From positions 40,542 to 104,541 of the forward strand of contig DATJNM010000060.1 in assembly GCA_035508155.1 (NCBI GenBank): a stretch of DNA of 64,000 nucleotides. Direction: 5' to 3'. Shown here piece by piece: positions 30,552 through 49,710 of this stretch. The DNA comes from Candidatus Sulfopaludibacter sp. GTDB lineage: Bacteria > Verrucomicrobiota > Verrucomicrobiia > Limisphaerales > UBA11358. The notes beneath the pieces were generated by a model. It ran no database searches. It was not told the DNA's origin and was given only the letters and a program-made list of their open reading frames with translations. Within the stretch, counting starts at the first letter, position 1. The number at the start of each line of letters is the position of its first letter. A program made the position numbers and the translations under genes.

Positions 30552-30748
30552 CGCTGGACTGCAAATGCGGCGCCGGAGAACACGCGCGCCGTAATCACGA
30601 CGGACATCGGAACCAAGAACGACAATTTAACCGATTTCGCAAGGGAGTGTGGCTTCATTGCTGGTGGCATGATAAACGGAATTGAGAACCTGACCAGCCC
30701 CCGAAAAACTGGGGGATTTGGTTTTTTTCGTGGCGAGAAAACCTCTGT

Positions 30749-33700
30749 TTGTTTCATAATGGATCCGTGCCTCCCGCCGCGAAACATTCTCTCCGCCAGC
30801 TGCTGTTGTTTCTCTGCCTGGCGCTGCCGACCTTTGCCGCGGCGGACGAGGATGATTCCGCCAGCCAGGACTACGTGGTCAAGGTCTGGGGTGCGGATAA
30901 CGGCCTGACCGAAAGTTCCGTTACCGACGTCGCGCAAACTCCGGAGGGCTATTTATGGGTCGGCACGCTTTTCGGCAGCGTGCTGCGATTCGACGGCACG
31001 AGCTTTGTCAGGTATAACTCGGCCAACACGCCGGAATTTTCCCAGAAATGGGGTGTCCCCCGGCTGATGGTGGACCAGGAAGGGACACTTTGGATCAGCA
31101 TGGTGGACGGCGGCATGACCACTTGGGACAAGCGCGGTTTCAGCTCGGTCTTCAACAGCACGAACCGTCCCGACCGCTTGTTATGGTCGGCGCCCGGCAG
31201 GGTCATTTTTATCTATGCCAATGGGAAGCTGCTGTCCGGGCAGAAAGCCCGCGAACAGTGGAACTGGCAGACCGTGACGTTACCGGACGTATTGCCGCAA
31301 GGTCAGCAATGCGCCGATGCCGAGGGCCGGATTTGGTATTTACAAAGTGAAAATAAAATCGGGGTCTGGAACGGCAGGGGAACCAATACACCCGCTCAGA
31401 CAAGCGAGTTGGAAGACCAGACGATCAACGTGCTGGCCGCGGACGAGGAGGGCCGGATCTGGATCGGCACCGATCGCTCCCTGGCCGTCTGGCAAACGAA
31501 CCATTTTGAGGCAATGACGCCGACCAACGGCGAGGCGGTGCTGAATGTGCAGGGAATTATTCCGTCCGGCGGCGGCAACCTTTGGGTGGAGGCCAACAAC
31601 CGAATGCGCCGCTGCGCCGGTCGGCGATGGCTGGCGGAGTCGGACGGCTGGAACCGCGAGCTTGCCGGGAGGACTTCGTTGCAATTTGTGCACGGTGATC
31701 GGGAAGGTGGTTTGTGGGCCGGCGCCGGCAATTTGGGATTAATCCATGTTGCCGCGGATGGCGCGTTCCAGCGACTGACCACGCGGGACGGATTGCCCAG
31801 CAATGTGATCCGCTTTGCCTATGAGGACCGCGATGGAAACATCTGGACGGGTTACGACCGGGGCGGCCTGGTGGAAGTGCGGCGGCGGCTCTTTCGGGTC
31901 ATCGGAAAGAGCCAAGGCCTGGGCGACAGCCTGATCAACAGCGTGTGTGAAGACATTCACGGCGGCGTTTGGATCGGCACGCACAGCGGCATGGTGGGCC
32001 ATTACGAGAATGGCGTCTGCACGAACATCGTATTGCCGGAACCGGCGCGCACGCAGGACAGTTGCATTGCGGCTGACGCGCGCGGCAGGGTGTGGATTGG
32101 CGGACAGGGGATCGGGCTGTTGAGGTGGGAGAACGAACAGTTGCGGCCAATCGCCACGGAGACGCAACTGGGTGGTTATCCGCGTCTGCTGTTGCCGGGC
32201 CGGGATGACCGGCTTTGGGTTGGAACCATTTGGTCCATCATCTGCGTCACCAACGGAAATCTCGCCTTTGATTACACCACGCAATCAGCGGGTGGTCATC
32301 CGACGGCACTGGCGGAAGCGGCGGACGGCACGATTTGGGCGGGAACCCTGGATGGTCTTCTTTTGCGCTGGGACGGCAAACAATTTGTCCCGCTGGCGCC
32401 GCCGGACCGGAATTCACTGGGACGAATCTGGGCGTTGTGGGCGGCGCCCGACAACAGCCTGTGGGCGGGAACCGAGGAAGGCGGTTTGTTGCACTTGAGC
32501 GATGGCAAATTCTTCCGCTACACCACAAAAAATGGAATGCCCTCGGACAGCGTCGTTCAGATTCTGAGCGACGCCCAGGGCAACTTGTGGCTCGGAACGC
32601 GCGCGGGCATTGCGCGCATCCCGGTTGACGCGCTGGCGCAATTCGAGCGTGGCCAATTGAACGTGCTGCCGGTGAGCGTTTACGGGCTGTCGGACGGGTT
32701 GCCGACGATTGCCAGCGCGATCATCTACCAGCCAAACTGCTGGCGCGGGCAGAACGGCACCCTATTTTTCGCCATGGCCAACAGCGTGGCGATGGTCAAT
32801 CCGGAGGAAGTTCACCTCAATCTTTTGCCGCCAACGGTGGTGCTGGAAGAAATATGGTCCGATGACAAACGGGTTTGGCCGGAAAACGTCGGCGCGGTCG
32901 TGACGGCTCCCGAAACCGCTGAAGGCCACTCCTCCGCCACGCCCGCCATCAAGGTCGGGCCCGGTCGCGGGGACCTGGAATTTCAGTACACCGGATTGAG
33001 CCTTGGTTCATCGGCGCGTGTCCGCTTCAAATACCGTCTGGCTGGACTGGAAAGCGACTGGAACGAGGCCGGGCGGGAACGAAAAGCCATCTACCGCCAC
33101 GTCCCGCCGGGCCGGTATGTTTTTCAAGTCATGGCGTGCAACAGTGATTCGGTGTGGAGCGACGACACGGCCTTGCTGGCGGTGAGGGTGGTTCCATTTT
33201 TCTACCAGACAGCCTGGTTCAAAGGTGGCGCGGGGCTGCTGGTGGTGGCGGGTTTATCCTTCGCCGTGGCGGTCGCCGTGCGCCGGCGGATGCGCCTGCG
33301 GCTGGAACGTTTGAAAAGCCAGCACGCGTTGGAACGGGAGCGGTCGCGCATCGCCCGGGATTTGCACGACGATCTCGGCGCGGGCCTGACTGAAATTGGT
33401 TTGCTGGGCGGAATGCTCCGGGACCCGGCGCGGCTCCCGGCGCACAAGGAGGAGGCGCTGAACCGGATCGTCGGCCGCAGCCACGAGTTGGTCATGGCGC
33501 TGGACGAAATTGTGTGGGCGGTCAACCCGCGGAACGACTCGGTGAATTCGCTCGGTGGCTATCTCTGCCGCTACGCGCAGGGCTTTCTGGAGCCGACGGC
33601 CATCCGCTGCCGTTTGGAAATGCAGGAAACAGAACCGGATCAGCCGCTGAATTCGGAGCAAAGACACAATCTTTTCCTGGCTTTCGAGGAGGCCTTGACC

Positions 33701-33961
33701 AACGTCGTCAAACATTCCGGAGCGACCGAAGTCCGCGTTAAAATCTCCGTCGAGAAGGAAAGCTGTCTGTTCATCAGCATCGAAGACAACGGACGCGGCC
33801 TGTCGCCGACCGTCAGGGGAGACGCCGACGGCTTGATCAACTTGCAGCAACGAATGGCCCGGATCGGCGGCCGGTGCGAGATTGTCAACCGGGCGGCGGG
33901 TGGCGTTTCCGTCAGCTTTGGCCTGCCGCTGGCCGCGCGGCGGCCCCGGCGGAGTGGTTAG
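30749..33961 (+). CDS. Sensor histidine kinase with periplasmic beta-propeller repeats + Y_Y_Y domain, HisKA_3 and HATPase domains
   Basis: Repeated propeller units (YLWVGT, IWIGTD, LWAGT, IWAGTLDGL, LWLGTRAGI). Y_Y_Y-type segment LEFQYTGLSL...RFKYRLAGLESDWNE...PPGRYVFQV. One TM helix. H-box ERSRIARDLHDDLGAGLT. ATPase NVVKHSGAT...DNGRG. The start is TTG 30749 or GTG 30767. Confidence 0.9.
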   Translation: MFHNGSVPPAAKHSLRQLLLFLCLALPTFAAADEDDSASQDYVVKVWGADNGLTESSVTDVAQTPEGYLWVGTLFGSVLRFDGTSFVRYNSANTPEFSQKWGVPRLMVDQEGTLWISMVDGGMTTWDKRGFSSVFNSTNRPDRLLWSAPGRVIFIYANGKLLSGQKAREQWNWQTVTLPDVLPQGQQCADAEGRIWYLQSENKIGVWNGRGTNTPAQTSELEDQTINVLAADEEGRIWIGTDRSLAVWQTNHFEAMTPTNGEAVLNVQGIIPSGGGNLWVEANNRMRRCAGRRWLAESDGWNRELAGRTSLQFVHGDREGGLWAGAGNLGLIHVAADGAFQRLTTRDGLPSNVIRFAYEDRDGNIWTGYDRGGLVEVRRRLFRVIGKSQGLGDSLINSVCEDIHGGVWIGTHSGMVGHYENGVCTNIVLPEPARTQDSCIAADARGRVWIGGQGIGLLRWENEQLRPIATETQLGGYPRLLLPGRDDRLWVGTIWSIICVTNGNLAFDYTTQSAGGHPTALAEAADGTIWAGTLDGLLLRWDGKQFVPLAPPDRNSLGRIWALWAAPDNSLWAGTEEGGLLHLSDGKFFRYTTKNGMPSDSVVQILSDAQGNLWLGTRAGIARIPVDALAQFERGQLNVLPVSVYGLSDGLPTIASAIIYQPNCWRGQNGTLFFAMANSVAMVNPEEVHLNLLPPTVVLEEIWSDDKRVWPENVGAVVTAPETAEGHSSATPAIKVGPGRGDLEFQYTGLSLGSSARVRFKYRLAGLESDWNEAGRERKAIYRHVPPGRYVFQVMACNSDSVWSDDTALLAVRVVPFFYQTAWFKGGAGLLVVAGLSFAVAVAVRRRMRLRLERLKSQHALERERSRIARDLHDDLGAGLTEIGLLGGMLRDPARLPAHKEEALNRIVGRSHELVMALDEIVWAVNPRNDSVNSLGGYLCRYAQGFLEPTAIRCRLEMQETEPDQPLNSEQRHNLFLAFEEALTNVVKHSGATEVRVKISVEKESCLFISIEDNGRGLSPTVRGDADGLINLQQRMARIGGRCEIVNRAAGGVSVSFGLPLAARRPRRSG

Positions 33962-34034
33962 GGAGGCACAACCGTTTCGCGGATTTATTCAGCCATCGGT
34001 TGTCCGGTTAAAATCGTTTTGGTAATAAAAGAAA

Positions 34035-34670
34035 ATGATCACCGTGGCGATAGTCGAGGATGACGCGGGCATACGCCGCAGTCTGGAATGGCTGCTGAAA
34101 TCGTCGGCGGAATTTTCGTGCGTCGCGGCCTGCAGGAACACCGAGGAGGCGCTTCGCCTCCTGCCGAAGACCGCGCCGGATGTCATTCTCATGGACATCA
34201 ATCTGCCCGACCGCTCGGGCATCGAATGCACCGCGCGCATCAAGGAGCTGCTGCCTTCGGCGCAGGTGGTGATGATCACGGTTTATGACGACGCCGAAAA
34301 AGTGTTTAACTCGCTGCGCGCCGGGGCGAGCGGCTACATCCTCAAACGAGCAACGCCGGAGCGGATCTCCCAGGCGATCCGGGAGGTCCACGCCGGTGGG
34401 GTGCCGATGTCGAGCGAGATTGCGCGCAAGGTCCTGGGCGTATTCCGCGAGCCGGCGCCTGCGCCGGCGGAGGATCAGAATCTTTCCCGGCGGGAACAGG
34501 AGGTGCTGGAACTGCTGTCCCAGGGCTGCGCGAACAAGGAAATTGCGGACAAACTTTCCATCAGCATCGAAACGGTAACCTGGCATCTGCGGCATATTTA
34601 CGCCAAGCTGCACGTCCGCTCGCGCACGCAGGCGGCCTTGAAATTTCTCGGCCAACGGAAAGGCTCGTAA
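34035..34670 (+). CDS. NarL/LuxR-family response regulator (REC + LuxR HTH)
   Basis: REC: ITVAIVEDDAGIR...DVILMDINLPDRSGIE...GASGYILK. HTH: LSRREQEVLELLSQGCANKEIADKLSISIETVTWHLRHIYAKLHV. Confidence 0.92.
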   Translation: MITVAIVEDDAGIRRSLEWLLKSSAEFSCVAACRNTEEALRLLPKTAPDVILMDINLPDRSGIECTARIKELLPSAQVVMITVYDDAEKVFNSLRAGASGYILKRATPERISQAIREVHAGGVPMSSEIARKVLGVFREPAPAPAEDQNLSRREQEVLELLSQGCANKEIADKLSISIETVTWHLRHIYAKLHVRSRTQAALKFLGQRKGS

Positions 34671-34697
34671 GCTTCCGCGCCGACAGCCGCCTCCAGG

Positions 34698-34744
34698 CCC
34701 CAGTTTTTGGGGGCTGGCCAGTTCGAGAACTTCTCGCGTAAATT
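34698..34744 (+). promoter_or_regulatory. Conserved 24-nt element copy 1 + -10-like box (candidate regulated promoter)
   Basis: CCCCAGTTTTTGGGGGCTGGCCAG (34698-34721), then 17 nt, then TAAATT (34739-34744). The ATG of the prepilin-like gene is at 34752. Confidence 0.5.
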
Positions 34745-34751
34745 AGAATGG

Positions 34752-35618
34752 ATGAACCCGCATCAGAAGAACCGCGGGGGTGCATTCCCCGGGGCATTTT
34801 CCCGCCACGTTTCCTTGCGAAGCCGCGAAACCACGGGGTCAGCGTTCACGCTCATCGAGCTGCTGGTCGTCATCGCCATCATCGCCGTTCTGGCGGCAAT
34901 GCTGCTGCCCGCTTTGAGCGCAGCCAGGGAAAGGGCGCAGTCAACCTACTGCCGGAACAATCTTGAGCAGTTGCAGTTGGCGATTGAAATGTACGCCGAT
35001 GACAACAAGCAGAAATTTCCCGACAACGCCGGAGCCACCATCAGCTACCAAGCCTGGGTCACCGGCAATATGAGTTGGGATTTGCCGCCGAATTTTCCAA
35101 GCACGGAAAACACCAACACGACCTATCTGACCGCCGGCGAGATCGGTCGGTATGTGGCCAAGAACGTCAAAATTTTCAAGTGCCCGGCGGACATTTATCG
35201 CGGTCGTTGGGGGCCGCGGGTGCGGAGCTACGCCATGAACGGTTTCGTGGGCGACACGTCGGATTTCAACGGCAAGGATAATCCCGGCTGGCGCAGATAT
35301 TTAAAAACCGGCGACTGCATCAGCCCCGGCCCGTCGAAAACGTGGGTGTTGATTTGCGAATGCCCGGATAGCATTGACGATGATTATTTCAAGATGCCCA
35401 TGCAGGGAGGTTCCGCCGCCAACTGGGTCGAGCTGCCGGCTTCGACTCATGCCGGGGCAGCCGGCTTGTCGTTTGCCGATGGCCACGCGGAGACGAAGCA
35501 ATGGCTCGACGCCAACTCCAAAGCGCCCGTCCGCAGGGTACATCCTTGTCCCGACTTCGGGAAGAATTCGCCCGACGATATGGCCTGGCTGCAACAACGG
35601 ACCAGCAGTCAACAGTAA
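34752..35618 (+). CDS. Prepilin-type N-terminal cleavage/methylation domain protein, H-X9-DG family (pseudopilin-like)
   Basis: [32 protein letters not shown] is a class III signal / N-methylation motif. The C-terminal [13 protein letters not shown] fits H-X9-DG exactly. Start taken at ATG 34752; the track TTG 34707 lies inside the upstream element. Confidence 0.88.
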
Positions 35619-35678
35619 CCATTGAAGCGGGACGACGGAAGAGTTTGCGAGTCACGGGAACGTTCGGCGGCTGGATTA

Positions 35679-35725
35679 CCCCAGTTTTTTGGGGCTGGCC
35701 AGATTGAATCCACTGCGCATAATTA
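35679..35725 (+). promoter_or_regulatory. Conserved 24-nt element copy 2 + -10-like box
   Basis: CCCCAGTTTTTTGGGGCTGGCCAG (35679-35702), then 17 nt, then TAATTA (35720-35725). TTG is at 35729 and ATG at 35732. Confidence 0.5.
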
Positions 35726-35728
35726 AGG

Positions 35729-37990
35729 TTGATGAGTCTGCGTTTCCAATTTGTGTTTCACTTTTTCATCGTCGGGTTAGCGCTGACGCTGGGGTTGGGC
35801 CGCTGCGAAGCGGCGGTTGTCGCTTCGGCCAGCGGCTTGTCGCTGCGTCTGAACGCAAGCGATGGCAGCTATCAACTCTCTGCCCGACAGCCGGCGTGGG
35901 AACTGGGCGGCAGCATCAACCAGCCCTTTCAGGACGTCGCCACCGGTCAAGGGCGGGATGCCATTGGCCATTATCGGCAGTTGTCATTCGAATGGGAGGA
36001 CGGGCAGACGCCGATGAGGGGCCAAATCCGGATTTATGAGGAGAAGCCGCTGGCGTTGTTTTCGCAAACCTGCGGCGCGGCGACCGAACTGCCGCCGCGC
36101 GCGTTCCCGGATTTCCAGGTGTTGCCGGGCAAATTGCACGTTTTCAGCTACGGTCATCATGAATTTGCGCCGCCACGTTTCGCGGCGACCGAAATCTCCA
36201 CACCCTGGCTGTTCTTTGATGATTCCGCCAACGCTTTGGTCATTTCTCCGGCGTCGCATTTCATGGTGGCCAGCATGGTGGGCGATGGGCGGACGGAGGC
36301 AGGCAGCGGATTTAATCCGGCCTTGCGGAACCTGCCGGCGGGTTTCACTCAACAAACGCTGGTCGCGTTCGGCCAGGGCATCAATCGGACTTGGGATTTA
36401 TGGGGCGGCGCGCTGCTGGCTTTGCACCACGCTCAACGCCCCTCCGACGACGCCGACACGGTGCTGAAGTACCTTGGTTACTGGACCGACAACGGCGCGA
36501 CTTATTATTATAACTACGACACCAATCTTGGCTACGTCGGCACGCTCCAATCGCTGGTCGAGCGTTACCGCCAGGAGCAGATTCCCATTCACTATTTGCA
36601 ACTGGATTCGTGGTGGTATGAAAAGAGCACCACCGGTCCCGACGGCCAGCCGGGAAGGGAAAAGAAATCCGATAAGTTGCCCGGCGGCGAGTGGAACTGT
36701 TACGGCGGCCTGTTGAAATACAAGGCCGACACCAATCTGTTCCCGAACGGCCTGGACGCTTTTCAGGAATCCATCGGCCTGCCGCTGGTCACGCACAATC
36801 GCTGGATTGATCCGGCCAGCCCTTACCATCAACAATACAAAATTTCCGGCATTGCGGCCGTGGATCCGAAATGGTGGGACCATATCGCCGATTACCTGAA
36901 GGTTTCCGGCATCATTACCTACGAACAGGACTGGCTGGACCGCATTTACACCTATTCCCCGGCGTTCAGCAGCAATGTCGAAACGGGGGAGGCTTTTCTC
37001 AACAACATGGCGCGTGCCTGCCAGGAACAGGGCATCACCATGCAGTATTGCATGCCTTATCCGTGTTATTTTCTTCAAGGCAGCCGCTACGATAATCTGA
37101 CGACCATCCGCACCAGCGGCGACCGGTTCAATATGGACCACTGGGACAATTTTCTCTACACGTCGCGCCTGGCTGCCTCGCTGGGAATCTGGCCGTGGGC
37201 GGATGTTTATATGAGCGGCGAAACCAACAACGTCCTGCTCTCCACGCTTTCCGCCGGGCCGGTTGGCATCGGCGACGCCATCGGCGCGGTCAACAAGGCC
37301 AATCTTCTCCATGCCGTCCGCACCGACGGGGTGATTGTCAAACCTGATGCGCCCATCGTACCGCTGGACCAGAGCTACATCGCCGACGCGAAGAAAAAAC
37401 CGGCGCCCCTGACGGCGGGCACCTACACCGACCGCGGCGGCGTCAAAACCGGATATATCTTCGCCTACAACCGGCCCGACACACCGGCGGACACGGTTCG
37501 TTTCAGTCCAGGCGAGTTGGGCTTGCGCGGCCCGGTGTATGTTTATGATTATTTTTCCGGCACAGGCAAATTGCTCCATGACGGTGCTGACTTCACCGCG
37601 CCGCTGGGCGGGGACGCCAGCGTATTCTACATGGTCGCGCCCGTCGGCCAAAGCGGCATCGCCTTCCTCGGCGACAAGAATAAATTTGTCGGCACCGGCC
37701 GGCAGCGGATTGTGTCGCTGGACGATGAGCCCGGCAGGCTGACCATCGGAGTCGTATTGGCGCAGAACGAAAAATCGGTCGTCCTTCACGGCTATGCCGC
37801 CGCGGAACCGAAAGTGACGGTCATTTCCGGCTCGGACGACACGGTCCAATACGATCCCGCCAGCCACTACTTCACGGTCGAAGTAAAGCCCGACGGAGAT
37901 GCGACGGGTGCCGAAACCGCCGACGCTCGCACCCGGCAAATGACGGTGGTGCTGGAAACAAGAAAGTGGCGAGTGACGAGTGACAAGTGA
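35729..37990 (+). CDS. Secreted clan GH-D-like TIM-barrel glycosidase (family unassigned)
   Basis: 753 aa with N-terminal signal/anchor FQFVFHFFIVGLALTLGLG. The segments YLGYWTDNGATYYYNY, HYLQLDSWWY, ITYEQDWLD and TIRTSGDRFNMDHWDNF resemble the barrel strands (nucleophile Asp, R-x-S-G-D acid/base) of GH27/31/36 enzymes. Family is read by eye only. The stop lies inside GTGAC element A. Confidence 0.8.
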   Translation: MMSLRFQFVFHFFIVGLALTLGLGRCEAAVVASASGLSLRLNASDGSYQLSARQPAWELGGSINQPFQDVATGQGRDAIGHYRQLSFEWEDGQTPMRGQIRIYEEKPLALFSQTCGAATELPPRAFPDFQVLPGKLHVFSYGHHEFAPPRFAATEISTPWLFFDDSANALVISPASHFMVASMVGDGRTEAGSGFNPALRNLPAGFTQQTLVAFGQGINRTWDLWGGALLALHHAQRPSDDADTVLKYLGYWTDNGATYYYNYDTNLGYVGTLQSLVERYRQEQIPIHYLQLDSWWYEKSTTGPDGQPGREKKSDKLPGGEWNCYGGLLKYKADTNLFPNGLDAFQESIGLPLVTHNRWIDPASPYHQQYKISGIAAVDPKWWDHIADYLKVSGIITYEQDWLDRIYTYSPAFSSNVETGEAFLNNMARACQEQGITMQYCMPYPCYFLQGSRYDNLTTIRTSGDRFNMDHWDNFLYTSRLAASLGIWPWADVYMSGETNNVLLSTLSAGPVGIGDAIGAVNKANLLHAVRTDGVIVKPDAPIVPLDQSYIADAKKKPAPLTAGTYTDRGGVKTGYIFAYNRPDTPADTVRFSPGELGLRGPVYVYDYFSGTGKLLHDGADFTAPLGGDASVFYMVAPVGQSGIAFLGDKNKFVGTGRQRIVSLDDEPGRLTIGVVLAQNEKSVVLHGYAAAEPKVTVISGSDDTVQYDPASHYFTVEVKPDGDATGAETADARTRQMTVVLETRKWRVTSDK

Positions 37991-38047
37991 CGGGAAAACT
38001 CCGGCGCCGGCCACTGCTAGTCACTTGTCACGTGTTGCCCGTCAACT
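37964..38047 (+). repeat. GTGAC-heptad palindromic element, copy A
   Basis: AAGTGGC GAGTGAC GAGTGAC AAGTGAC, then a 28-nt loop (contains CCGGCGCCGG), then GTCACTT GTCACGT GTTGCCC GTCAACT. GTGACAAGTGAC (37980-37991) is perfectly complementary to GTCACTTGTCAC (38020-38031). Confidence 0.85.
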
Positions 38048-39998
38048 CGGCGCTGTGGCTTTGGTGTCGTTGTTTCTCATCCCATCGTTCGCCGCCACCG
38101 GCGAAAATCCTTTCTGGCAGCGCCAGAGCATTTACCAAATCATCACCGACCGTTTTTACGACGGCGATCCGTCAAACGACAATGCCGACGGCAATTACGA
38201 TCCGACGGGTCACCGCGGCACGTCCGTTCACGGCGGTGATTTCAAGGGCATCGAGGAAAAACTGGATTACCTCAAGTCGCTCGGCGCGACGGCCATCTGG
38301 ATTTCGCCGGTGGTGTTGAATGCCCGCGGCGAATTTCACGGTTACGCGGGGCTGGATTTTTACAAGGTGGACCCGCATTGGGGCACGATGGCGGACCTGC
38401 GACATCTGGTTCAGGCGGCGCACGCGCGCGGCATTCTGGTCATTGACGACATCGTGGTGAATCACGGCGGCAACCTCGTGGACAGCGCCGATCCGGGGTA
38501 TCCCGATTTCAAATATCCGCCCGCGGGATACCATTTGCGCTTCCGCGATCCCGCACGGCAATATCCGCCACCGTTTGATCTGAATGCCACCCACCCGTCG
38601 CTCACGAACCTGTTTCACGACAACGGCTTCATCCAGGACTATCACGACCCGGTCCAGGTTGAACTGGGCGAGTTGGGCGGGCTTGATGATTTTCGGACCG
38701 AAACGCCGTACGTTCGGGCACAGATGGAGAAGATTTACGAGTTTTGGATCCAGCAAGCGGGCTTCGACGCCTTCCGCATTGACACCGTCAAGCACGTCGA
38801 GGTCGGATTCTGGCGGGATTGGTGTCCGGCCATCCGCGCGTTCGCGGCGGCGCGCGGCAAGCCGGACTTTTTCATGTTCGGCGAAGTGCTGGATCATTCC
38901 GACGCCAAGTGTGGTTCCTACACCGGCATGATGGGGGGTGGGCCGTTCAAACTCGACTCAGTTCTGGATTACCCGCTGTATTTCAAAATCAAGTCCGTCT
39001 TCGCCGAGGCCACCGGCGGCACGAAACAAATCGTTGAGCACTACCGCGCCGTCAGCGCGAATTACGACCCGTCGGCGCAAAATCAATTGGTGACGTTCCT
39101 CGACAACCACGATCAGCCGCGTTTTTTGAGTGTCCCCGGGGCAACCGTCGCCCGGCTCAAGGTGGCGCTGATTTTTCTCTATACCGCGCAGGGCATTCCC
39201 TGCCTGTATTACGGCACGGAACAGGCCTTCAACGGCGGGAAGGACCCATTTGACCGGGAGGACATGTTCGCCGGACGATTCGAGTGGGGGCCGTCGCTGG
39301 GCGATAACTTCGACATGACGCATCCGTTGTTTCAACTCGTCGCCAGGCTTAACAATTTCCGGCGGCTCTATCCGGTGTTGCAAACCGGCATCCAATCCAA
39401 TCTGTGGGCCGGCGCCGGCGGCCCCGGCCTGTTCGCCTACATACGGCGGCTCGGTACACAACAAGTGTTCGTGGTTTTCAACACAGCGGAAACGAACCGG
39501 ATTCTGCCACCCTGCCCGACGATTTATCCGGCGGGAAAAAGGCTGCAAAATTTGCTCGATGAAAAGGAAAATTTAACCGTGCTCGCGGGCGGAAAGACTC
39601 CATCCCTCGCCGTGCCGGGCACATCGGCAAAAATCTTCGTCGCCAAATCCGAAATCCGTCCGCTTGATCCGGTGGTGACCGGCATATTGCCGAAACACGA
39701 CTCGCGGGAAATTTCGCCGACCGCGCCGATTATCGTTCGCTTCAGTCAGCCGATGGAAACCACGAGCGTGGAGCGTGCTTTTTCGACGGTGCCGGCGGTG
39801 CCGGGCGCGTTTTCCTGGACGGCCGCAGGCGACGAAATGACTTTCCAGCCGGCAAATCCCGGATTCCAACCGCAAACGATGATCACCGTGCGCATCGGCG
39901 ACGCGGCGCGTTCCGCCGATTCCGGCAGGACATTTTACGCCGGGTTTGAATCACGTTTCCGGTGCGGCGGGGCGGGCAGGGTCTCGCCGCCAAATTGA
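37980..39998 (+). CDS. GH13 alpha-amylase-family enzyme with C-terminal Ig-like domain
   Basis: GH13 regions I-IV are present: DDIVVNHGG, GFDAFRIDTVKHV, FMFGEVLD, FLDNHDQPRF. The C-terminal ~90 aa are Ig-like (SbsA/Big_5-like). The alternative start TTG 38025 (MSRVARQLGAVALVSLFLIPSFAA) gives a cleaner signal peptide than GTG 37980. Confidence 0.9.
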   Translation: MTSDGKTPAPATASHLSRVARQLGAVALVSLFLIPSFAATGENPFWQRQSIYQIITDRFYDGDPSNDNADGNYDPTGHRGTSVHGGDFKGIEEKLDYLKSLGATAIWISPVVLNARGEFHGYAGLDFYKVDPHWGTMADLRHLVQAAHARGILVIDDIVVNHGGNLVDSADPGYPDFKYPPAGYHLRFRDPARQYPPPFDLNATHPSLTNLFHDNGFIQDYHDPVQVELGELGGLDDFRTETPYVRAQMEKIYEFWIQQAGFDAFRIDTVKHVEVGFWRDWCPAIRAFAAARGKPDFFMFGEVLDHSDAKCGSYTGMMGGGPFKLDSVLDYPLYFKIKSVFAEATGGTKQIVEHYRAVSANYDPSAQNQLVTFLDNHDQPRFLSVPGATVARLKVALIFLYTAQGIPCLYYGTEQAFNGGKDPFDREDMFAGRFEWGPSLGDNFDMTHPLFQLVARLNNFRRLYPVLQTGIQSNLWAGAGGPGLFAYIRRLGTQQVFVVFNTAETNRILPPCPTIYPAGKRLQNLLDEKENLTVLAGGKTPSLAVPGTSAKIFVAKSEIRPLDPVVTGILPKHDSREISPTAPIIVRFSQPMETTSVERAFSTVPAVPGAFSWTAAGDEMTFQPANPGFQPQTMITVRIGDAARSADSGRTFYAGFESRFRCGGAGRVSPPN

Positions 39999-40009
39999 CA
40001 CGCGCAAAT

Positions 40010-40057
40010 CCCCAGTTTTTGGGGGCTAGGCAGGATTCCAAAGTCTGCGGATATTAA
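40010..40057 (+). promoter_or_regulatory. Conserved 24-nt element copy 3 + -10-like box
   Basis: CCCCAGTTTTTGGGGGCTAGGCAG (40010-40033), then 18 nt, then TATTAA (40052-40057). The next ATG is at 40100. Confidence 0.5.
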
Positions 40058-40099
40058 GCTCGCGCATATTCAATCCAGAACACCTTAACCGATTAAACT

Positions 40100-41974
40100 A
40101 TGAAGACCAAAACCGCCGTTCTTTCGTCCATGTTTTGTGCGGGGCTTTTGCTGGGCACCACCTGGCCGGTTTGCGCGGACACCCTGATCGCCTTTCAGTG
40201 CGACATGACGTATCAGGTTCAAAACTCACAATTCACCAATGGGGTCAATACGCTTAAAGTGTATACATATAACGCCACTCCGGCCGCCGTAACCAACTTG
40301 GTGTTGACCAACAATCCCGCATCATTGGTCAATACCAATCTCTATACGGGAACGTGGGACGATATGGTTGATACCAACGGCGCTCAAATCCAATATAAAT
40401 TTTATGCCGTCGGAAGTTCGATTCCCGGTGGCCCCTATGAAACGACGGCGACTTACAACGATAACCGGGTGACATTGCTTCCTGCGGGCAGCGGCCAGCA
40501 GAGTCTGGTCTTGCCCGTTCAGTTTTTCAGCGACCAGGGCATAAACCTAGCCTCCCCCCAATTTGTCGTAACCAGCAACATCTGGTTCCAAGTGGACATG
40601 TCACAGCAAATTGCCCTTGGGACTTTCAATCCCTCGACACAAACGGTGGAAGTTGACGGCAGCTTGGGCAGCGGCAATAATTTCGGTTTCGGCCAGGGGA
40701 CCACCCCCAGCGGCAACACCTTGACCAATGATCCCACCCTCCTGAGAACCAATCAGTTTGGTTTGGTGACTTCCAATGTATATACCGGATTTCTCTCCCA
40801 GCTCATTGCCGGCTCACCCGGGCAGAATGCCCAATTTAAATATCGAATCCAGCCATCTGCCATATACGAAAGCCCCAACAATCTAAACGGAGACGCGCAA
40901 AACAGCCATAACCGCTTCTTTTTCCTCACCGCGACCACCACAAACCCGATTGTCTTTTTCAGCGATCAGCCCTACGCGCCAATTGGAACAAACCGGATCA
41001 CCTTCTCGGTGGACATGAGCGCTCAAATCTGGAGCGGCCAGATGAGCAATCAACAAGTTCGCTTGAGCGGAGATTTTAACAATTGGGATACGAGCGGCAC
41101 GCTGGGCAATCTCTGCACAAATAATCCCAACGCCAGCAACACCAACATTTACTCTGCAACGGCAACTATCACCAATGGAGTCGGAGCTGCAACTCAATTC
41201 AAGTTCGGCTATGTCAATGGGAATTACGAAAACAATCCCACTCATACCTACCCGGGCGATCCATCCGTTGCCATCATCACCCCCAACCGGGAATTCATCA
41301 TGCCTGATGTCAGTGGCACCAATCTGACTTTGCCGACTGTTTATTTCAATGACACATCCACTTACTCCGTGCTGCCGGCTCCGCCCCCCACCAATTTCGT
41401 GACCTTCAGTGTCAGCATGACCAATGCGGTGGGCACGGATTCGCACGTGTTCAATCCCAACACCGACAGTGTTTATCTGAACGGTGTGGATGTGACCATG
41501 ACGTTGGGAACCTACCGCTTTGACCCATGGACCAACAATCCGACCGGCAACCCGCTGGGAAATTTCCTGATGATCAACAATCCGGTGGGCAGCGAGATTT
41601 ACACCATCACGGTCCCGATTCCGGCGGGATACCCGGTGATGCTTTCGTACCAATATTCCATCAACGGTAACCAGGATGAGGCCAATGGCATCAATCATAC
41701 CCGTTACATCCGGTCCACCGGAAACTACGTTCTGCCGCTGGATGTCTTCGGCAACATGGTTCAGGAACAGTCGTTCGGTAACCTGGCCGTCGGGGCAAAG
41801 TCAGGCGGCAACGTGCCGATCACCTGGCTGGGCCGTCCGGGCGTCCATTTGCAAGTCAAAACGAACCTGACCGTCGGTGCCTGGACCGATCTGCTCGGCA
41901 CCGATGCCCAAAGCGCAACGAACTATCCTGCAGGCGCGGGCGCCAGCTACTTCCGGTTAACCAATCCGTTTTGA
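40100..41974 (+). CDS. Secreted protein with four tandem CBM20/48-like beta-sandwich modules and conserved C-terminal tail (putative glucan-binding surface protein)
   Basis: Signal peptide MKTKTAVLSSMFCAGLLLGTTWPVCA. Four modules open with IAFQCDMTYQV / IWFQVDMSQQI / ITFSVDMSAQI / VTFSVSMTNAV. Module 3 has VRLSGDFNNWD...QFKF, typical of starch/glycogen-binding CBMs. Function is inferred. Confidence 0.8.
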   Translation: MKTKTAVLSSMFCAGLLLGTTWPVCADTLIAFQCDMTYQVQNSQFTNGVNTLKVYTYNATPAAVTNLVLTNNPASLVNTNLYTGTWDDMVDTNGAQIQYKFYAVGSSIPGGPYETTATYNDNRVTLLPAGSGQQSLVLPVQFFSDQGINLASPQFVVTSNIWFQVDMSQQIALGTFNPSTQTVEVDGSLGSGNNFGFGQGTTPSGNTLTNDPTLLRTNQFGLVTSNVYTGFLSQLIAGSPGQNAQFKYRIQPSAIYESPNNLNGDAQNSHNRFFFLTATTTNPIVFFSDQPYAPIGTNRITFSVDMSAQIWSGQMSNQQVRLSGDFNNWDTSGTLGNLCTNNPNASNTNIYSATATITNGVGAATQFKFGYVNGNYENNPTHTYPGDPSVAIITPNREFIMPDVSGTNLTLPTVYFNDTSTYSVLPAPPPTNFVTFSVSMTNAVGTDSHVFNPNTDSVYLNGVDVTMTLGTYRFDPWTNNPTGNPLGNFLMINNPVGSEIYTITVPIPAGYPVMLSYQYSINGNQDEANGINHTRYIRSTGNYVLPLDVFGNMVQEQSFGNLAVGAKSGGNVPITWLGRPGVHLQVKTNLTVGAWTDLLGTDAQSATNYPAGAGASYFRLTNPF

Positions 41975-42053
41975 TTTCAGCCGGGTACCACTGTCAAACC
42001 GACCGCCCAATGCCGGAGCGCGCGTTCCGGTTCCGGCGCGGAGCTTAATTGAC

Positions 42054-42952
42054 ATGGAATTGCCGACAAAAACAAAGTCCAAGACGGCAATGATGGTTTC
42101 ACCTTGATTGAGTTGTTGTTGGTGATTGCCATCATAGCGATTCTGGCCGCGATGTTGTTGCCGGCTTTGTCCGCGGCCAAGGTGCGGGCGCAGATCATTG
42201 CTGGCCTGAGCAATAAGAGGCAGTTGATGCTGGCCTGGTATATGTATCCCGGGGACCACAACGACCTGTTGGTGCTCAATACCAATCAGTCAGTCAACGT
42301 CAACGGCGTCGATCCGTGGATTCCACCGGGCAGCAAATTGGATTGGGGCAGTTCCTCGGCCAATACAAGCGTGACGCTCCTGGTAAGCTGTCAACTAGGC
42401 CCCTATTGTGGCGGTCAATTTAAAATTTTTACTTCGCCGGGGGATGTTTTCCTGTCTCCCATTCAGCAGGTGCTGAATATGGGCAAGCTTTTTAATCATC
42501 GGGCCAGGAGCGTCGCCATGGATGCGGCGATTGGCGGCGACGGATGGAATCATCCCGCCGACAATGGCAAGTCCGGGTATAAACCCCCCGCCTCTCTTGC
42601 TTCAAGCCTCAATCCCTTTTTCTTCGCGACCAAGTTAAGCCAAATGGTCAATCCCGGCCCGAGCAAGTGCTGGGTGTTTCTGAACGAGCACCCGGACAGC
42701 ATTGACGATGGGATTTTCTATGACGATCCTCGGGCAACAGATGGAACCGGCACGCTCATCGAAGTGCCGTCGAGCTATCTGGGCGGCGGCTGCGGCGTTT
42801 CTTTTGCCGACGGGCATGCGGAGGTTCATAAATGGACAACCAGCGCGTTCCTCGTTCCGGTTAAATATGCGAAGTATCCGGGAACCGGCGGGGTGCATTA
42901 CACCCAAAACGAGGACATGGCCTGGCTGGCACAGCACACACCCGCGCATTAG
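42054..42952 (+). CDS. Second prepilin-type N-terminal methylation domain protein (H-X9-DG-like, degenerate), with leader out of frame (frameshift or non-canonical start)
   Basis: The main frame reads ...[32 protein letters not shown]...[13 protein letters not shown]. The first canonical in-frame start is TTG 42104, downstream of the G/F cleavage site. A plausible leader ATG at 42054 ([17 protein letters not shown]) is in another frame and stops at 42105-42107. Confidence 0.7.
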
Positions 42953-42962
42953 CCGTCCTAAC

Positions 42963-43008
42963 CCCCAGTTTTTGGGGGCTAGGCAGATTCCGCAACCTCA
43001 CGTACATT
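42963..43008 (+). promoter_or_regulatory. Conserved 24-nt element copy 4 + -10-like box
   Basis: CCCCAGTTTTTGGGGGCTAGGCAG (42963-42986), then 16 nt, then TACATT (43003-43008). The next gene's ATG is at 43068. Confidence 0.5.
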
Positions 43009-43067
43009 CAACATGTGATTTTCCCCGACCGAAGAGAAAACCTGAAACTCGAAACAACTTGAAATTT

Positions 43068-43952
43068 ATGAAAATTAGAAAACGTCTCAACGGATTCGCT
43101 ATCGGATTGGGTGTGCTGGTTGTGGCGGTTTATTCGGTGCCAGGTCAAGACACTATTAATGTGACGGGTACATCTGGCACGACTTATCCCGGCAATAACA
43201 CGGGCCAAGGGAGCGCCAACAAGGGACGCGAAATCTACTCCGCAACCATTGCCAATGACGCGAACAATCTCTACATCACACTCGCTCTTAATCCAGCGGG
43301 CAACGCAATGACCCAGGGCGGTTTTGATTATCTCATGGTCATCACCTCCGGCAATCCTTCCGCCGGCGGCGACACCTCCGCCGACGCCACGACCCACGGG
43401 AATGCGTACGACCGTGCCATATCCATTGACAGTGGATTCGGCGGAATGACGGATATGATAGGAATATACACACCTAACTCCAGCAGTCCCTACAGCTTCG
43501 GATTTAACGATTGGATTTTCAGTGGCGGGAGCTGGATACAGGAGAATACCTATCCCACCGGCGTGACGTTAGTCAATGGCTCGGGAGGCAACCCGACTGA
43601 ACTCACCTTCACCGCCCCGTTGAGTGATTTCCCAAATCTGACTCTCACTCCCGGCTCAACTTTCGATTTCGATTTTGACAGCACGGGCACCGGCGCCGGT
43701 CAGACCGCTTATGGCGACCTGGTGCTTCCTGGGCCGGTTCAGGGCGGAACTTATTATGTTAATGGAACTTCGATGAGCGGTGCGGGGACCTATAGCGCCA
43801 CATACCAATTCAACGAAACCACGCTTGATCAATACACAGTCGCAGCGGTGCCCGAGCCGGCCACCCTGGCCCTGGCGGGTTTAAGCGGGTTGTCTCTGAC
43901 GCTGCTCCGTCGTCAGCGGAGGAAAGCCGGTTTGTCTTCGGCACTGCGCTAA
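43068..43952 (+). CDS. PEP-CTERM sorting-domain protein (function unknown)
   Basis: ATG 43068 gives MKIRKRLNGFAIGLGVLVVAVYSVPG. The C-terminus AAVPEPATLALAGLSGLSLTLLRRQRRK is a PEP-CTERM signal. The track ORF start 42702 overlaps the upstream gene and is rejected. Confidence 0.85.
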   Translation: MKIRKRLNGFAIGLGVLVVAVYSVPGQDTINVTGTSGTTYPGNNTGQGSANKGREIYSATIANDANNLYITLALNPAGNAMTQGGFDYLMVITSGNPSAGGDTSADATTHGNAYDRAISIDSGFGGMTDMIGIYTPNSSSPYSFGFNDWIFSGGSWIQENTYPTGVTLVNGSGGNPTELTFTAPLSDFPNLTLTPGSTFDFDFDSTGTGAGQTAYGDLVLPGPVQGGTYYVNGTSMSGAGTYSATYQFNETTLDQYTVAAVPEPATLALAGLSGLSLTLLRRQRRKAGLSSALR

Positions 43953-44024
43953 CCCGGTCGGGGCGTCGCATAGTTTTCAACCGCGCAAGTCACACCGCCT
44001 GCCCGGGGATTTGCGTTGTATGAA

Positions 44025-46601
44025 ATGAAATCACCCGGGTTCACAACGGTGAGACTTTGTGTTGCGGCCGCCAGTGTGATGGTTGCGTCCGTCAATGCGG
44101 CGCCGGCCCAAATTGTAGCTGACGACGACGCGGCCGCCTACTTCAAAACCTCCAACTGGACCAATGGCGCGAACCAGGGTTTCGGTTTTACTCCCTGGGT
44201 GTTGGCTACCAATGCCTTTGGCGGCGGAGGTTACCGCGGCTGGTATCTCAACAACGGCTATGCCATCGCCTCGGTCACCAATGTCAGCGGCACGGCCTAC
44301 ACAAACTGTTCCTGGGGCATTTACGCCAACGGCGCCGCTCCAGCCGGCGGCAACCGCACGGTCGCCTGTCGTGGCTTTGCCAGTTCTTTGACGACCAACC
44401 TGGTTTTCAAACTCCAGTGGATGACGGAGGGCATCGGTCCCGGCACGACGAATTACGCCGGGTTTGTCCTGCGCAATGGAAATTCCACCGGCGACGTGAC
44501 TGCATACGAAACCGGCTACCGCTTTGAATTTTATTACACGGGCGGCGGCACCGATTCCTTTCTTGTCAAAGATGGCAACGGTGTCACGGCTATTGGGCTT
44601 CCCTTCGCGGCAGGTTACGGCAATTCCGCCGCCGGCCACCTCAACGCCACCGGGCTGAACTGCGAATTCACCCTGGAGCCAAACGACACCTATCGCTTCG
44701 TGGTCCGGAGCGCGACGAACAACGAAGTGCTCGCTTTTCTGGACCACCAGCCGCTCGCTGGCAATCCCGGCTCGACCATTGACAGCGTGGCACTCTTCGC
44801 CAACGAAACCACCGGCAGCGGCTCCAGCGGCGGGGACCAGAATTACAACCGGATGCAAATCGTCTCCCCGTTGCTCAGCCCGCCCATTATCATCAATGTT
44901 CAACCGACCAACGGATCGGTTTTCGTCAACCCGGCCGCCAATATTTCCTTTGAAGTGGATTCGGCTTCAGGTGTGTCCGGCGCAGATGTCACGCTGCTTC
45001 TCGATGGCATCCCGCAGACGCTCGCCTTCAATACCAACGGCGCGACGCAGCAACTACTGGCGACCAACACCACGCTGCTGGCGACCAACGTTTCCGAGAG
45101 CGGCACCATTATCGCCATGGATGTCTATGGCAACAGCGCAACAAACACGTTCAGTTTCAACACGATTCAGACCAATTCACTGTGGCAAGACGCAAAAAAC
45201 TACGGCGCCACCGGAAATGGCACGACCCGGGACACCGCCTCGATTCAGGCGGCTATCAACGCCTGCCCGCCCGGCGGATATGTATGGCTCCACAACGGCA
45301 CGTTCCTGTCGGGAACGATTTTCCTGAAGAGCGACATGACGCTTTACATTGACCCGACTGCGACCTTGCTGGGCAGCGGGTCAACCAATGATTATCCCAT
45401 CCTCAACCCTCCGGCCAACAACAGCCAGCAGCACAACTGCGACATGGCCCTGGTTTATGCCCAAAGCTGCGCCAACGTCACGGTTGACGGCGGCGGAACC
45501 ATCAACGGCAACGGCCGCAATTATTTTACCTCCGGGGTTGAGGCAACCCGGCCCATCTCCATTTGGACGGCGCTGTGCAATCAGGTGAACCTCCGCAACC
45601 TCAACGTCGTGGACGCGGCCATGTGGACCGTGGTCAATATGCAGTCCGATTACCTGACCATCAGCAACCTCAACATCAATGACGATGGCTTGAATGGGAA
45701 TCGGGACGGCTGCGACGTGGTGGATTGCTGGCACGTCCTCGTTGCCAATTGCACGATCGACTCCGGCGACGATTCCATCTGTCTCAAAAGCGGCAATCCG
45801 CGCGGCGTGAACGATCTTTTGGTCACGAACTGCGTGATCACCCGGTCACAGTCCAACGGCTTGAAATTCGGGACCGCCAGCACGGGGCCGTTCACGAACA
45901 TCGCGTTTCAGAATTGCACGGTGCTGAACACGGCGCATTCGGCGATGGCGGTGGAATCAGTGGACGGCGCCGCGATCAGCGATGTCACATTCCAGGGAAT
46001 CAATTTCTCCGGCTGCCAGAATGCCATTTTCATCATCTTGGGAACCCGCGACGCGGGAGTGACGCCGGGCAGTGTCAATGGCATCACCTTTAGAAACATC
46101 ACCGGCTCCAGCATGACCGACACGCGCGGTTGCCCCATCTCCGGCTGTATTACGAATGGCGCGACCTACCCGTTACAGAACCTCCTGTTCGACAATGTGA
46201 ACGTGTCCTTCGCTGGAGGGTTGGGTTCGATTCCTTCGGCGCCCCCGGAATATGCGGGCCAGTATCCTGAAAACACCATGTGGGGGAATCTGCCGGCTTA
46301 CGGATATTACATCCGACACGCGACGAATGTGACCTTTACGAATTGTTTCACCAGCGCCGCTTCCCCGGACGCCCGGCCGTGGCTCGCCACCAATGACGTT
46401 TCAAATTTAACCGCTGTCGGTCCGCCGTTGAATATTTTCTCAAGCGGCGCGAATGTGGTGCTCCAATGGCCGAACGCCTTTACTTTGCAGACGGCCACCA
46501 ATGTGACGGGTCCATATGCCGATGTGACCGGAGCGTTCAACCCATACACGAACCCGATTACTGCCGGCGGACTGCCGCACTTTTTCAGACTGCGGCAATA
46601 A
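44025..46601 (+). CDS. Secreted right-handed beta-helix glycosidase (clan GH-N, GH28/GH49-like) with N-terminal lectin-like and Ig-like regions and conserved C-terminal tail
   Basis: AKNYGATGNGTTRDTASIQAAINAC, NGNRDGCDVVDC, SGDDSICLKSG and QSNGLKFGT match the GH28-type beta-helix catalytic pattern. Signal peptide MKSPGFTTVRLCVAAASVMVASVNA (TTG 44016 is an alternative start). Confidence 0.8.
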   Translation: MKSPGFTTVRLCVAAASVMVASVNAAPAQIVADDDAAAYFKTSNWTNGANQGFGFTPWVLATNAFGGGGYRGWYLNNGYAIASVTNVSGTAYTNCSWGIYANGAAPAGGNRTVACRGFASSLTTNLVFKLQWMTEGIGPGTTNYAGFVLRNGNSTGDVTAYETGYRFEFYYTGGGTDSFLVKDGNGVTAIGLPFAAGYGNSAAGHLNATGLNCEFTLEPNDTYRFVVRSATNNEVLAFLDHQPLAGNPGSTIDSVALFANETTGSGSSGGDQNYNRMQIVSPLLSPPIIINVQPTNGSVFVNPAANISFEVDSASGVSGADVTLLLDGIPQTLAFNTNGATQQLLATNTTLLATNVSESGTIIAMDVYGNSATNTFSFNTIQTNSLWQDAKNYGATGNGTTRDTASIQAAINACPPGGYVWLHNGTFLSGTIFLKSDMTLYIDPTATLLGSGSTNDYPILNPPANNSQQHNCDMALVYAQSCANVTVDGGGTINGNGRNYFTSGVEATRPISIWTALCNQVNLRNLNVVDAAMWTVVNMQSDYLTISNLNINDDGLNGNRDGCDVVDCWHVLVANCTIDSGDDSICLKSGNPRGVNDLLVTNCVITRSQSNGLKFGTASTGPFTNIAFQNCTVLNTAHSAMAVESVDGAAISDVTFQGINFSGCQNAIFIILGTRDAGVTPGSVNGITFRNITGSSMTDTRGCPISGCITNGATYPLQNLLFDNVNVSFAGGLGSIPSAPPEYAGQYPENTMWGNLPAYGYYIRHATNVTFTNCFTSAASPDARPWLATNDVSNLTAVGPPLNIFSSGANVVLQWPNAFTLQTATNVTGPYADVTGAFNPYTNPITAGGLPHFFRLRQ

Positions 46602-49399: not shown

Positions 49400-49710
49400 C
49401 AACGTCAGCGAAACAATCGTAATGAGTGAATAAATCCGGGTCAATGAAGTTTGCCATCGCGTGGGAGCCGTCAGGCGCACGGCGTTGTGCGCACGAACGG
49501 GTTGAACATCTAAAATCGAGCGGACGATATGTCGGCGGCGTACTCGCACTGACCTCAACCTTATCGGCCGGGCCGGGGCAGGCTGGCAAAGTTGCTTATA
49601 ATAAAGTGGTTCCGGCGACGCCATTCTCGTTGACGCTGTCTGTAAAGGTGGGTGTTTACCTGTCCGGGAATGTCTTTCCCGGCATATACTTTGCTGTGTT
49701 GCGCATACAG

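Follow-up and report, generated by a model that had tools for sequence, protein, structure and literature searches.

The window analysed here, a 64,000-nucleotide (nt) stretch of contig DATJNM010000060.1 from the genome of an uncultured soil member of the Verrucomicrobia, carries genes for glycoside hydrolases (GHs), prepilin-like proteins and a PEP-CTERM protein next to the genes of a two-component system, and the same 24-nt element recurs upstream of the genes in this glycan locus. We propose, with a probability of about 0.7, that this element serves as operator for the two-component system encoded within the locus and would be read by the adjacent NarL-type response regulator as an activator. 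A sequence-only reading of the window had already suggested a locus-specific activator site at the -35 position for that regulator, and the computational tests reported below lend support to the idea. The sites themselves, their geometry and conservation and their co-occurrence with the regulator can be read from the data; from these we infer that the regulator binds and acts as an activator, not as a repressor, and likewise where transcription starts, that the system regulates itself and that a glycan induces it.

One element heads the units of a single locus

Pfam and NCBIfam assignments give the gene order of the locus as GH127-like (minus strand), sensor kinase, regulator, DUF1559 prepilin-type (prepilin-1), 752-amino-acid (aa) protein, GH13, 624-aa protein, second prepilin-like protein, PEP-CTERM protein and GH28-like. 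With the first copy of the element as a pattern and up to three mismatches allowed, four plus-strand matches were found in the window, at 34698, 35679, 40010 and 42963 (sites 1 to 4, with 0, 1, 2 and 2 mismatches to copy 1), which are the four copies that the sequence-only reading had picked out. None of 100 dinucleotide-preserving shuffles contained a match. These copies lie 27, 60, 11 and 10 nt past the preceding stop codon, and an A/T-rich hexamer follows the 24-mer after 16-18 nt in all four, the first two hexamers, as read earlier, ending 7 and 6 nt before ATG 34752 and ATG 35732. No other copy had been noticed at that stage, but a looser search revealed a fifth one on the minus strand (site 5, 30714 to 30690, CCCCAGTTTTTcGGGGGCTGGTCAG) that carries a 1-nt insertion, is followed by TATCAT and lies between two divergently oriented genes, those of GH127 (28521-30551, minus strand) and the kinase. 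The earlier count of four transcription units was too low as well, with GH127 forming a fifth unit headed by the motif and the kinase-regulator operon contributing a sixth conserved promoter.

A position weight matrix (PWM) was built from 30 non-redundant verrucomicrobial sites and scanned across the 64 kb. It recovered five sites, all of them in the locus, with scores of 45.6 (site 3), 42.0 (site 4), 40.6 (site 2), 36.1 (site 1) and, ungapped, 15.6 bits (site 5); there was no sixth site in the window, where the next best position reached 0.2 bits. The short consensus is AAT-N-CC(C/A)CAGTTTTTGGGGGCT(A/G)G(G/C)CAG, and in the ungapped alignment of the 30 sites the motif extends to AAT-N-CCCCAGTTTTTGGGGGCT(A/G)G(G/C)CAG. 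The conserved AAT at positions -3 to -1 and CA at positions 22-23 both lie outside the pattern used for searching, and their conservation is therefore free of ascertainment bias. Within the upstream 17 nt, two overlapping dyads (CCCCA-N5-TGGGG and CCAG-N10-CTGG) are arranged around an invariant asymmetric T5G5 block.

The choice between G and A at position 19 follows the family of the downstream gene among orthologous sites. The CTAGGC subtype stands before the 624-aa gene in 6/6 and before the PEP-CTERM gene in 6/7 cases, CTGGCC precedes the 752-aa gene in 4/4, and CTGG is found before the GH127 gene in 4/4 and before the prepilin-1 gene in 7/8, a distribution that suggests promoter-specific tuning and not drift. 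The two subtypes distinguished by the sequence-only reading hold up as this difference at position 19, which is conserved by gene family, whereas the CTGGCCAG palindrome described for one of them is not conserved among orthologues, which keep only CT(A/G)G plus a TNGNCA-like -35 box, and is thus no feature of its own.

The element travels with its target genes

We scanned a collection of species-representative genomes (~600 Gb) for the exact pattern CCCCAGTTTTTKGGGGCTRG. This 20-mer was found in 26 stretches, 20 of which lie on contigs of Verrucomicrobia metagenome-assembled genomes (Limisphaerales/subdivision 3) if one contig labelled Bifidobacteriaceae and one labelled 'uncultured bacterium' are included, both of which carry the syntenic genes. 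All verrucomicrobial stretches are syntenic with the window locus by tblastn, and the element heads orthologues of the same genes in otherwise diverged intergenic DNA. On a 4.6-Mb contig of a relative (CAWDIX010000002.1), the exact pattern has only two matches, one adjoining the kinase gene and the other located ~170 kb away before a PEP-CTERM orthologue. Copies of the element are therefore few in a genome and accompany its target genes. This pattern fits a trans-acting factor with a small regulon. With five sites in 64 kb that all fall in the locus and two exact matches in 4.6 Mb, the element is not the generic intergenic repeat that the sequence-only reading had named as a refuting outcome.

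The remaining six exact matches, in Myxococcota, Acidoferrales, Clostridiales (two), Phototrophicaceae and Synechococcus, were rejected as chance occurrences that lack a -10 hexamer, the gene context and the flanking AAT. By our manual estimate, a pattern as long as this one should give about that many single matches in unrelated phyla in a collection of this size. As a side observation, contig CAZIFP010000002.1 (loci L009 and L022) was assigned to 'uncultured Bifidobacteriaceae', almost certainly by a binning error, since it runs collinear to the verrucomicrobial contig CAWACS010000026.1 at high similarity and carries three motif copies.

The element co-occurs with the NarL-type regulator

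The putative reader of the element is a NarL/FixJ-family response regulator (34035-34670, plus strand) that joins a receiver domain (REC) to a GerE/LuxR helix-turn-helix (HTH) domain with the recognition helix ETVTWHLRHIY (Pfam Response_reg 1.1e-26, GerE 3.7e-20) and has VraR, NarL and DevR as its closest solved relatives in the PDB. Directly upstream, the sensor histidine kinase (30767-33961, plus strand) comprises periplasmic Reg_prop beta-propeller repeats, Y_Y_Y, HisKA_3 and HATPase_c (Pfam).

Loci were picked by the regulator protein, independently of the motif. A protein search with the regulator returned more than 120 clusters at 81-94% identity, and three long contigs with regulators 88, 83 and 81% identical to that of the window all carry the element (3/3), where it heads a prepilin gene, GH28-like genes and the gene of a 1282-aa protein and where CCACAG-type variants are common. 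A metagenome scan seeded with the regulator yielded 80 loci spanning 89% to 35% identity. At 75% identity or above, five of these six metagenome loci have the element 25-45 nt past the regulator stop, followed by a -10 hexamer and ATGAACCC, and overall the element is present in 8/9 loci whose regulator is at least 75% identical (L027, L028, L029, L030, L031, L033, L034 in degenerate form, and L035). Among the regulators of 35-63% identity, it was found at a comparable position in 0/74 loci, with only scattered matches of 3-5 errors inside genes.

The DNA-binding domain of the regulator behaves in the same manner. Every locus that bears the motif encodes the recognition helix ETVTWHL(R/K)HIY, while paralogues have TVR[YFASM]H, TVKNH and similar helices in its place. 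When the 120 orthologue clusters are compared, conservation within the protein is highest in the HTH (mean column identity 0.94, with 0.88 in the receiver domain), whose recognition helix hardly varies at all. Such a co-occurrence of motif and regulator is the pattern expected if the regulator were to read the element. A paralogous regulator of 61% identity (L037) showed no analogous operator, as no convincing intergenic repeat was found in its locus. In L028, a Transposase_mut/MULE transposase gene (11345-12577) lies right downstream of the regulator gene, in the usual place of the prepilin gene, and this locus keeps a motif copy at 17011 before the gene of the 1282-aa protein.

Promoter geometry favours activation

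We defined a -10-like hexamer as one with A at position 2, T at position 6 and at least 4/6 matches to TATAAT. Such a hexamer starts at motif position 40-42 in 32/39 verrucomicrobial sites, compared with a background of 7.6% of random window positions and 0/6 of the chance matches in other phyla. With this hexamer placed at -12 to -7, the 20-mer reaches from ~-52 to -33, its centre lying near -42.5. Motif positions 18-23 (TGGCCA, TAGGCA or TGGTCA) then form a weak -35 box that shares T-G-CA with TTGACA (4/6), at a spacer of 16-18 nt. A weak -35 with a good -10 is the usual signature of activator-dependent promoters, and a site centred at -42.5 takes the classic position of class II activators as in LuxR, TraR and DevR promoters. 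The combination of weak -35, good -10 and -42.5 centre favours activation as the probable function of the element.

We therefore envisage the following mechanism, which stays conditional at each step. The kinase would sense a periplasmic glycan fragment through its beta-propeller and Y_Y_Y domains and phosphorylate the regulator, which, presumably as a dimer, would bind CC(C/A)CAGTTTTTGGGGGC at ~-52 to -36, abutting the weak -35. The bound regulator would recruit RNA polymerase with the housekeeping sigma factor to the -10 hexamer 16-18 nt downstream, and five units would be switched on, i.e., GH127; prepilin-1; the 752-aa gene with GH13; the 624-aa gene with the prepilin-like gene; and the PEP-CTERM gene, possibly with GH28.

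A strongly conserved upstream block at fixed spacing to a downstream hexamer could alternatively be the -35 or upstream element of an alternative sigma factor of the extracytoplasmic function (ECF) or sigma-54 type, all the more as GerE-type HTH domains are homologous to sigma region 4 and faint Sigma70_r4_2 matches were seen. We consider this very unlikely. Sigma-54 promoters follow TGGCAC-N5-TTGC and ECF promoters have a GGAAC-like -35 with a CGTC-like -10, but the downstream hexamers here are TATAAT-like (CATAAT, TATAGT, TAAATT) and not CGTC-like, and the sigma-54 pattern GG-N10-GC at -24/-12 is absent, the TGGCCA of copies 1 and 2 having no GC at +10. The regulator also lacks the AAA+ domain that an enhancer-binding activator of sigma-54 needs, neither the conserved locus nor its orthologues contain a sigma or anti-sigma gene, and the conserved block reaches -52, far past any contact of a sigma factor with the -35 region.

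Least probable of all is that the element works through folding of the nucleic acid into a hairpin, as a terminator or processing site for the upstream gene, or belongs to a repeat family resembling repetitive extragenic palindromes or miniature inverted-repeat transposable elements, and is no protein-binding promoter element. CCCCAG-UUUUU-GGGGG can indeed form a hairpin of 5-6 bp, copies sit 10-60 nt after stop codons, and three of the window copies fold somewhat better than shuffled sequences (z = -2.3, -2.2 and -1.6), but the other two do not stand out in the same way (z = 0.0 and -1.3) and the frequent C3 to A change is never compensated at G13. Furthermore, there is no U-tract downstream, none of the five sites was called in a terminator scan, and no gene precedes site 5. 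The element keeps a fixed orientation and a fixed distance to the -10 and start codon, and its copies are few per genome and lack terminal repeats or target-site duplications. A search of positions 30000-45000 against Rfam at E<=1 gave only an unrelated sub-threshold small RNA at 38086-38227. An extended stem that copies 1, 2 and 4 could form between the upstream flank and CTGG/CTAGG was dismissed as coincidence, since it is not conserved and the flank of the orthologues is AAAT(A/C).

Who reads the element, and how

Several observations weigh against a plain reading of the element as an activator site of the adjacent regulator. One regulator orthologue, L032, shows no site in the 172 nt that its contig offers after the gene. 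The genomes bearing the motif all come from a single clade in which the locus is syntenic; the correlation between motif and regulator therefore lacks phylogenetic independence, and the same pattern would arise with any other factor specific to the clade. The C3 to A variant disrupts the CCCCA/TGGGG dyad and the A19 subtype disrupts CCAG/CTGG, neither of which is strictly kept, and the asymmetry of the inner T5G5 obscures the mode of binding. A site that abuts the -35 could equally serve a repressor. Finally, ~21 bits suffice to specify ~7 sites in a genome of 5-6 Mb and the element holds more than that, in excess of what a simple HTH dimer site usually contains.

Some of these points bear directly on the possibility that the operator is real and that its reader is another clade-specific factor encoded elsewhere, or that the adjacent regulator acts as a repressor blocking the -35. 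The site abuts or overlaps the -35 at a position that also fits repressors, the link between regulator and motif is confounded by synteny within one clade, and so high an information content could point to several readers. We nevertheless regard this possibility as unlikely, given that no DNA-binding protein other than the regulator is conserved in the locus, that its recognition helix is invariant exactly where the motif occurs, that the weak -35 (TGGCCA/TAGGCA, 4/6) followed by a good -10 is the usual signature of dependence on an activator and that the centre takes the class II position.

The information content deserves a closer look. It amounts to roughly 35-43 bits in the sample ascertained by the motif, with about 43 bits when summed over positions -3 to 24; in the sites ascertained by the regulator it is clearly lower yet still high, with C or A at position 3 and two sites that differ by 3-4 changes. 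Part of the excess is the -35 box itself, and the rest may stem from joint reading by the regulator and RNA polymerase, from the DNA shape of the T-tract/G-tract junction or from ascertainment bias. A more far-reaching and rather doubtful proposal is that the element is composite and read jointly by the regulator and RNA polymerase (through sigma region 4, the alpha subunit C-terminal domain or the T-tract/G-tract DNA shape), which would define a distinct and largely leaderless promoter architecture of glycan loci in Limisphaerales-type Verrucomicrobia. It is motivated by an information content roughly twice what the few genomic sites require, the invariant asymmetric T5G5, the coincidence of the 3' end with the -35 and the presence of one copy at both class II and class I distances. 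If true, this composite architecture would be analogous in its role to the regulation of polysaccharide utilization loci (PULs) in Bacteroidota.

A divergent kinase-regulator promoter and predicted leaderless mRNAs

In the interpretation that we prefer, with the adjacent regulator as activator, site 5 would serve two promoters at once. The kinase-regulator promoter (30731-30769, plus strand) consists of a TGGCGA -35-like box at 30731-36, an 18-nt spacer, CATAAT at 30755-60 and, after 6 nt, GTG 30767, to which we revised the kinase start and which is followed by a signal-peptide-like N-terminus. The kinase-side layout is kept in 9/10 orthologous loci in the order inverted motif, ATTTG, T-run, (G/A)TGGCG, ~18 nt, CATA(A/C)T, 6-8 nt and the ATG or GTG of the kinase. 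The centre of site 5 falls near -42.5 of the GH127 promoter and near -63 of the kinase-regulator promoter, two helical turns apart, and the site probably confers positive autoregulation from the class I-like position.

At three promoters, those of prepilin-1, the 752-aa gene and the kinase, the -10 hexamer lies 6-8 nt before the start codon without a Shine-Dalgarno sequence (TAAATT-7-ATG, CATAAT-8-ATG and CATAAT-6-GTG, respectively), and the same layout recurs in L005, L009, L015, L021, L027, L028, L030, L031, L033 and L035 as well as in the 9/10 kinase promoters. The mRNAs of these three genes are predicted to begin at the start codon or no more than 1-2 nt away from it and hence to be leaderless or nearly so, which is what had been put forward for copies 1 and 2 and now gains from the conservation of the short -10-to-ATG distance of 6-8 nt in orthologues. 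For prepilin-1, the start ATGAACCC is conserved in L027, L030, L033 and L035, and this conservation of the MNP... N-terminus supports the view that translation begins at ATG 34752. In place of the leaderless layout, the 624-aa and PEP-CTERM genes have conserved 5' untranslated regions (5'UTRs) of ~40-55 nt. In the window, transcription starts are predicted near 34751-34752, 35730-35732, 30767, ~40062, ~43015 and, on the minus strand, ~30662.

Individual sites

Site 1 (34698-34721, plus strand, CCCCAGTTTTTGGGGGCTGGCCAG) lies directly past the regulator stop and forms the putative prepilin-1 promoter, with the -10-like TAAATT at 34739-34744; orthologues of this site after the regulator gene are present in L008, L021, L027, L029, L030, L031, L033 and L035. 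Site 2 (35679-35702, plus strand, CCCCAGTTTTTTGGGGCTGGCCAG) would be the promoter of the operon of the 752-aa protein and GH13 (35732-39998), in which the two genes overlap, GH13 being of the alpha-amylase family; its T6G4 variant recurs at the orthologous promoter in L009 and L015. Site 3 (40010-40033, plus strand, CCCCAGTTTTTGGGGGCTAGGCAG), just past the GH13 stop, is the candidate promoter of the 624-aa gene and the prepilin-like gene next to it and has orthologues in L004, L008, L014, L016 and L022, every one of the CTAGGC subtype. Neither the 752-aa nor the 624-aa protein matches a family in Pfam or NCBIfam, and a PDB sequence search gave no useful match for either.

The hexamers called by the sequence-only reading could be kept at sites 1 and 4 (TAAATT and TACATT) and had to be shifted at the other two. 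At site 2, orthologues favour CATAAT (35718-35723, plus strand) over TAATTA (35720-35725), from which a leaderless mRNA or one with a 1-2 nt leader is predicted for ATG 35732. At site 3, the -10-like block GATATTAA (40050-40057, plus strand) can be read as GATATT (40050-40055), which the orthologues favour, or as TATTAA (40052-40057). The ATG of the 624-aa gene at 40100 then predicts a 5'UTR of ~40 nt. Here a short block, (A/T)AGAACACC (40077-40084, plus strand), is conserved in the same five loci that share site 3, lies ~15-35 nt upstream of the ATG and is not a Shine-Dalgarno sequence.

Site 4 (42963-42986, plus strand) has the same sequence as site 3, CCCCAGTTTTTGGGGGCTAGGCAG, and would drive expression of the PEP-CTERM gene (43068-43952) and perhaps, by read-through, of GH28; its orthologues are found in L011, L014, L016, L017, L022 and L026. 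The -10-like TACATT (43003-43008, plus strand) is followed by a conserved 5'UTR of ~55 nt. In the same six loci this 5'UTR (43010-43067, plus strand) is conserved as GATTCTCCCCCATCAGGAAGAGAA...CTGAAAC..., in which TTCTC and GAGAA could pair, and it may be a translational control element.

Site 5 (30690-30714, minus strand) is the putative GH127 promoter, with the -10-like TATCAT at 30669-30674 on the same strand; on the opposite strand, the start of the kinase gene follows ~53 nt after it. Its orthologues in L006, L009, L012, L018, L019, L020, L023 and L027 do not have the insertion. An upstream open reading frame (ORF) of 36 codons (MKPHSLAKSVKLSFLVPMSVVITARVFSGAAFAVQR*; 30548-30658, minus strand) opens ~10 nt past the -10 of the GH127 promoter, and its stop overlaps the GH127 start codon (ATGA). 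In L009, the GH127 orthologue lacks the ~100-nt leader that holds this upstream ORF.

Comparison with known systems

The lux box is a 20-bp dyad at -42.5, the proximal boxes of DevR/DosR lie at ~-43.5 and NarL binds TACCCCT-type heptamers in a 7-2-7 arrangement. With LuxR/TraR class II and NarL-family sites our element shares a GerE/LuxR-HTH protein encoded beside its targets, and with the class II sites also a 20-bp element at ~-42.5 that overlaps a weak -35 ahead of a good -10 and the proposed function in activator-dependent transcription. Its half-sites are C/G-runs that may form a dyad, and CAG-N10-CTG resembles the CTG-N10-CAG of the lux box in mirror image. In contrast to LuxR, TraR, NarL and DevR sites, it has no match to their consensus, an invariant asymmetric T5G5 and unusually high information. 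Unlike LuxR and TraR, the regulator would depend on phosphorylation and is no acyl-homoserine-lactone receptor, and several of the target mRNAs are predicted to be leaderless.

A second comparison is with the hybrid two-component systems (HTCS) that control PULs in Bacteroides, which likewise have periplasmic Reg_prop beta-propellers with Y_Y_Y, are linked to glycoside hydrolases and resemble our case in the locus-specific induction proposed here. They differ in that kinase and regulator are separate proteins in our locus, with HisKA_3 and with a NarL/GerE HTH as output in place of a fused AraC-type domain, that SusC/SusD genes are missing, that the regulon includes DUF1559 prepilin-like and PEP-CTERM proteins and that the phylum is Verrucomicrobia. 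Class I and class II geometry were defined for CRP at -61.5 and -41.5. The position of one site at ~-42.5 and ~-63 recalls autoregulated two-component operons with a shared divergent operator, a likeness of geometry alone, whereas the kinase promoter here has its own T-run and TGGCGA -35-like box.

The sequence-only reading had not recognised the element as a described motif, and we likewise found no paper with its sequence or the reverse complement; a literature search on Verrucomicrobia promoters, leaderless mRNAs and Y_Y_Y systems returned nothing relevant. What emerges is a well-supported candidate for a previously undescribed operator and regulon in uncultured Verrucomicrobia. It is a conceptually standard two-component regulon and as such not surprising in principle; its value is that of a resource and of a way into gene regulation and leaderless expression in this phylum. 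In soil and freshwater, Verrucomicrobia from this clade are abundant glycan degraders that are mostly uncultured, and we found no account of how their loci of carbohydrate-active enzymes are regulated. The present data offer a precise hypothesis of sensor, regulator and operator for a regulon of GH13, GH127-like, GH28-like, DUF1559 prepilin-like and PEP-CTERM proteins. They would connect two enigmatic kinds of protein, DUF1559 prepilin-like and PEP-CTERM, with a response to glycans, predict leaderless expression of the sensor kinase operon and two target units and provide a motif that can be used for the annotation of this regulon in metagenomes.

Neighbouring genes

Just beyond the block controlled by the motif lie a GH2 gene (46694-49624, minus strand) and the ORF of a hybrid histidine kinase (49426-52173, plus strand; HAMP-HisKA-HATPase-REC). 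No motif copy was found in this region (46694-52173), which is presumably regulated separately.

Two genes in the window appear broken. The second prepilin-like gene (42104-42952) is apparently frameshifted at its 5' end (42054-42110, plus strand), where the frame opened by ATG 42054 stops at ~42104 and the frame that encodes GFTLIELL has no start codon after TGA 42050; its orthologue in L004 has an ATG in frame. An indel introduced by assembly in an A-run would explain the break, as would a true frameshift. An apparent 1-nt frameshift near 24100, after ...GNVHWT, divides a fusion gene of trehalose-6-phosphate synthase and phosphatase (GT20 + Trehalose_PPase; 22919-24993, minus strand) into two overlapping ORFs, a second case that points to indel errors or pseudogenes in the assembly. 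The fusion gene is adjoined by a trehalase gene (19466-21481) and the gene of a mechanosensitive channel.

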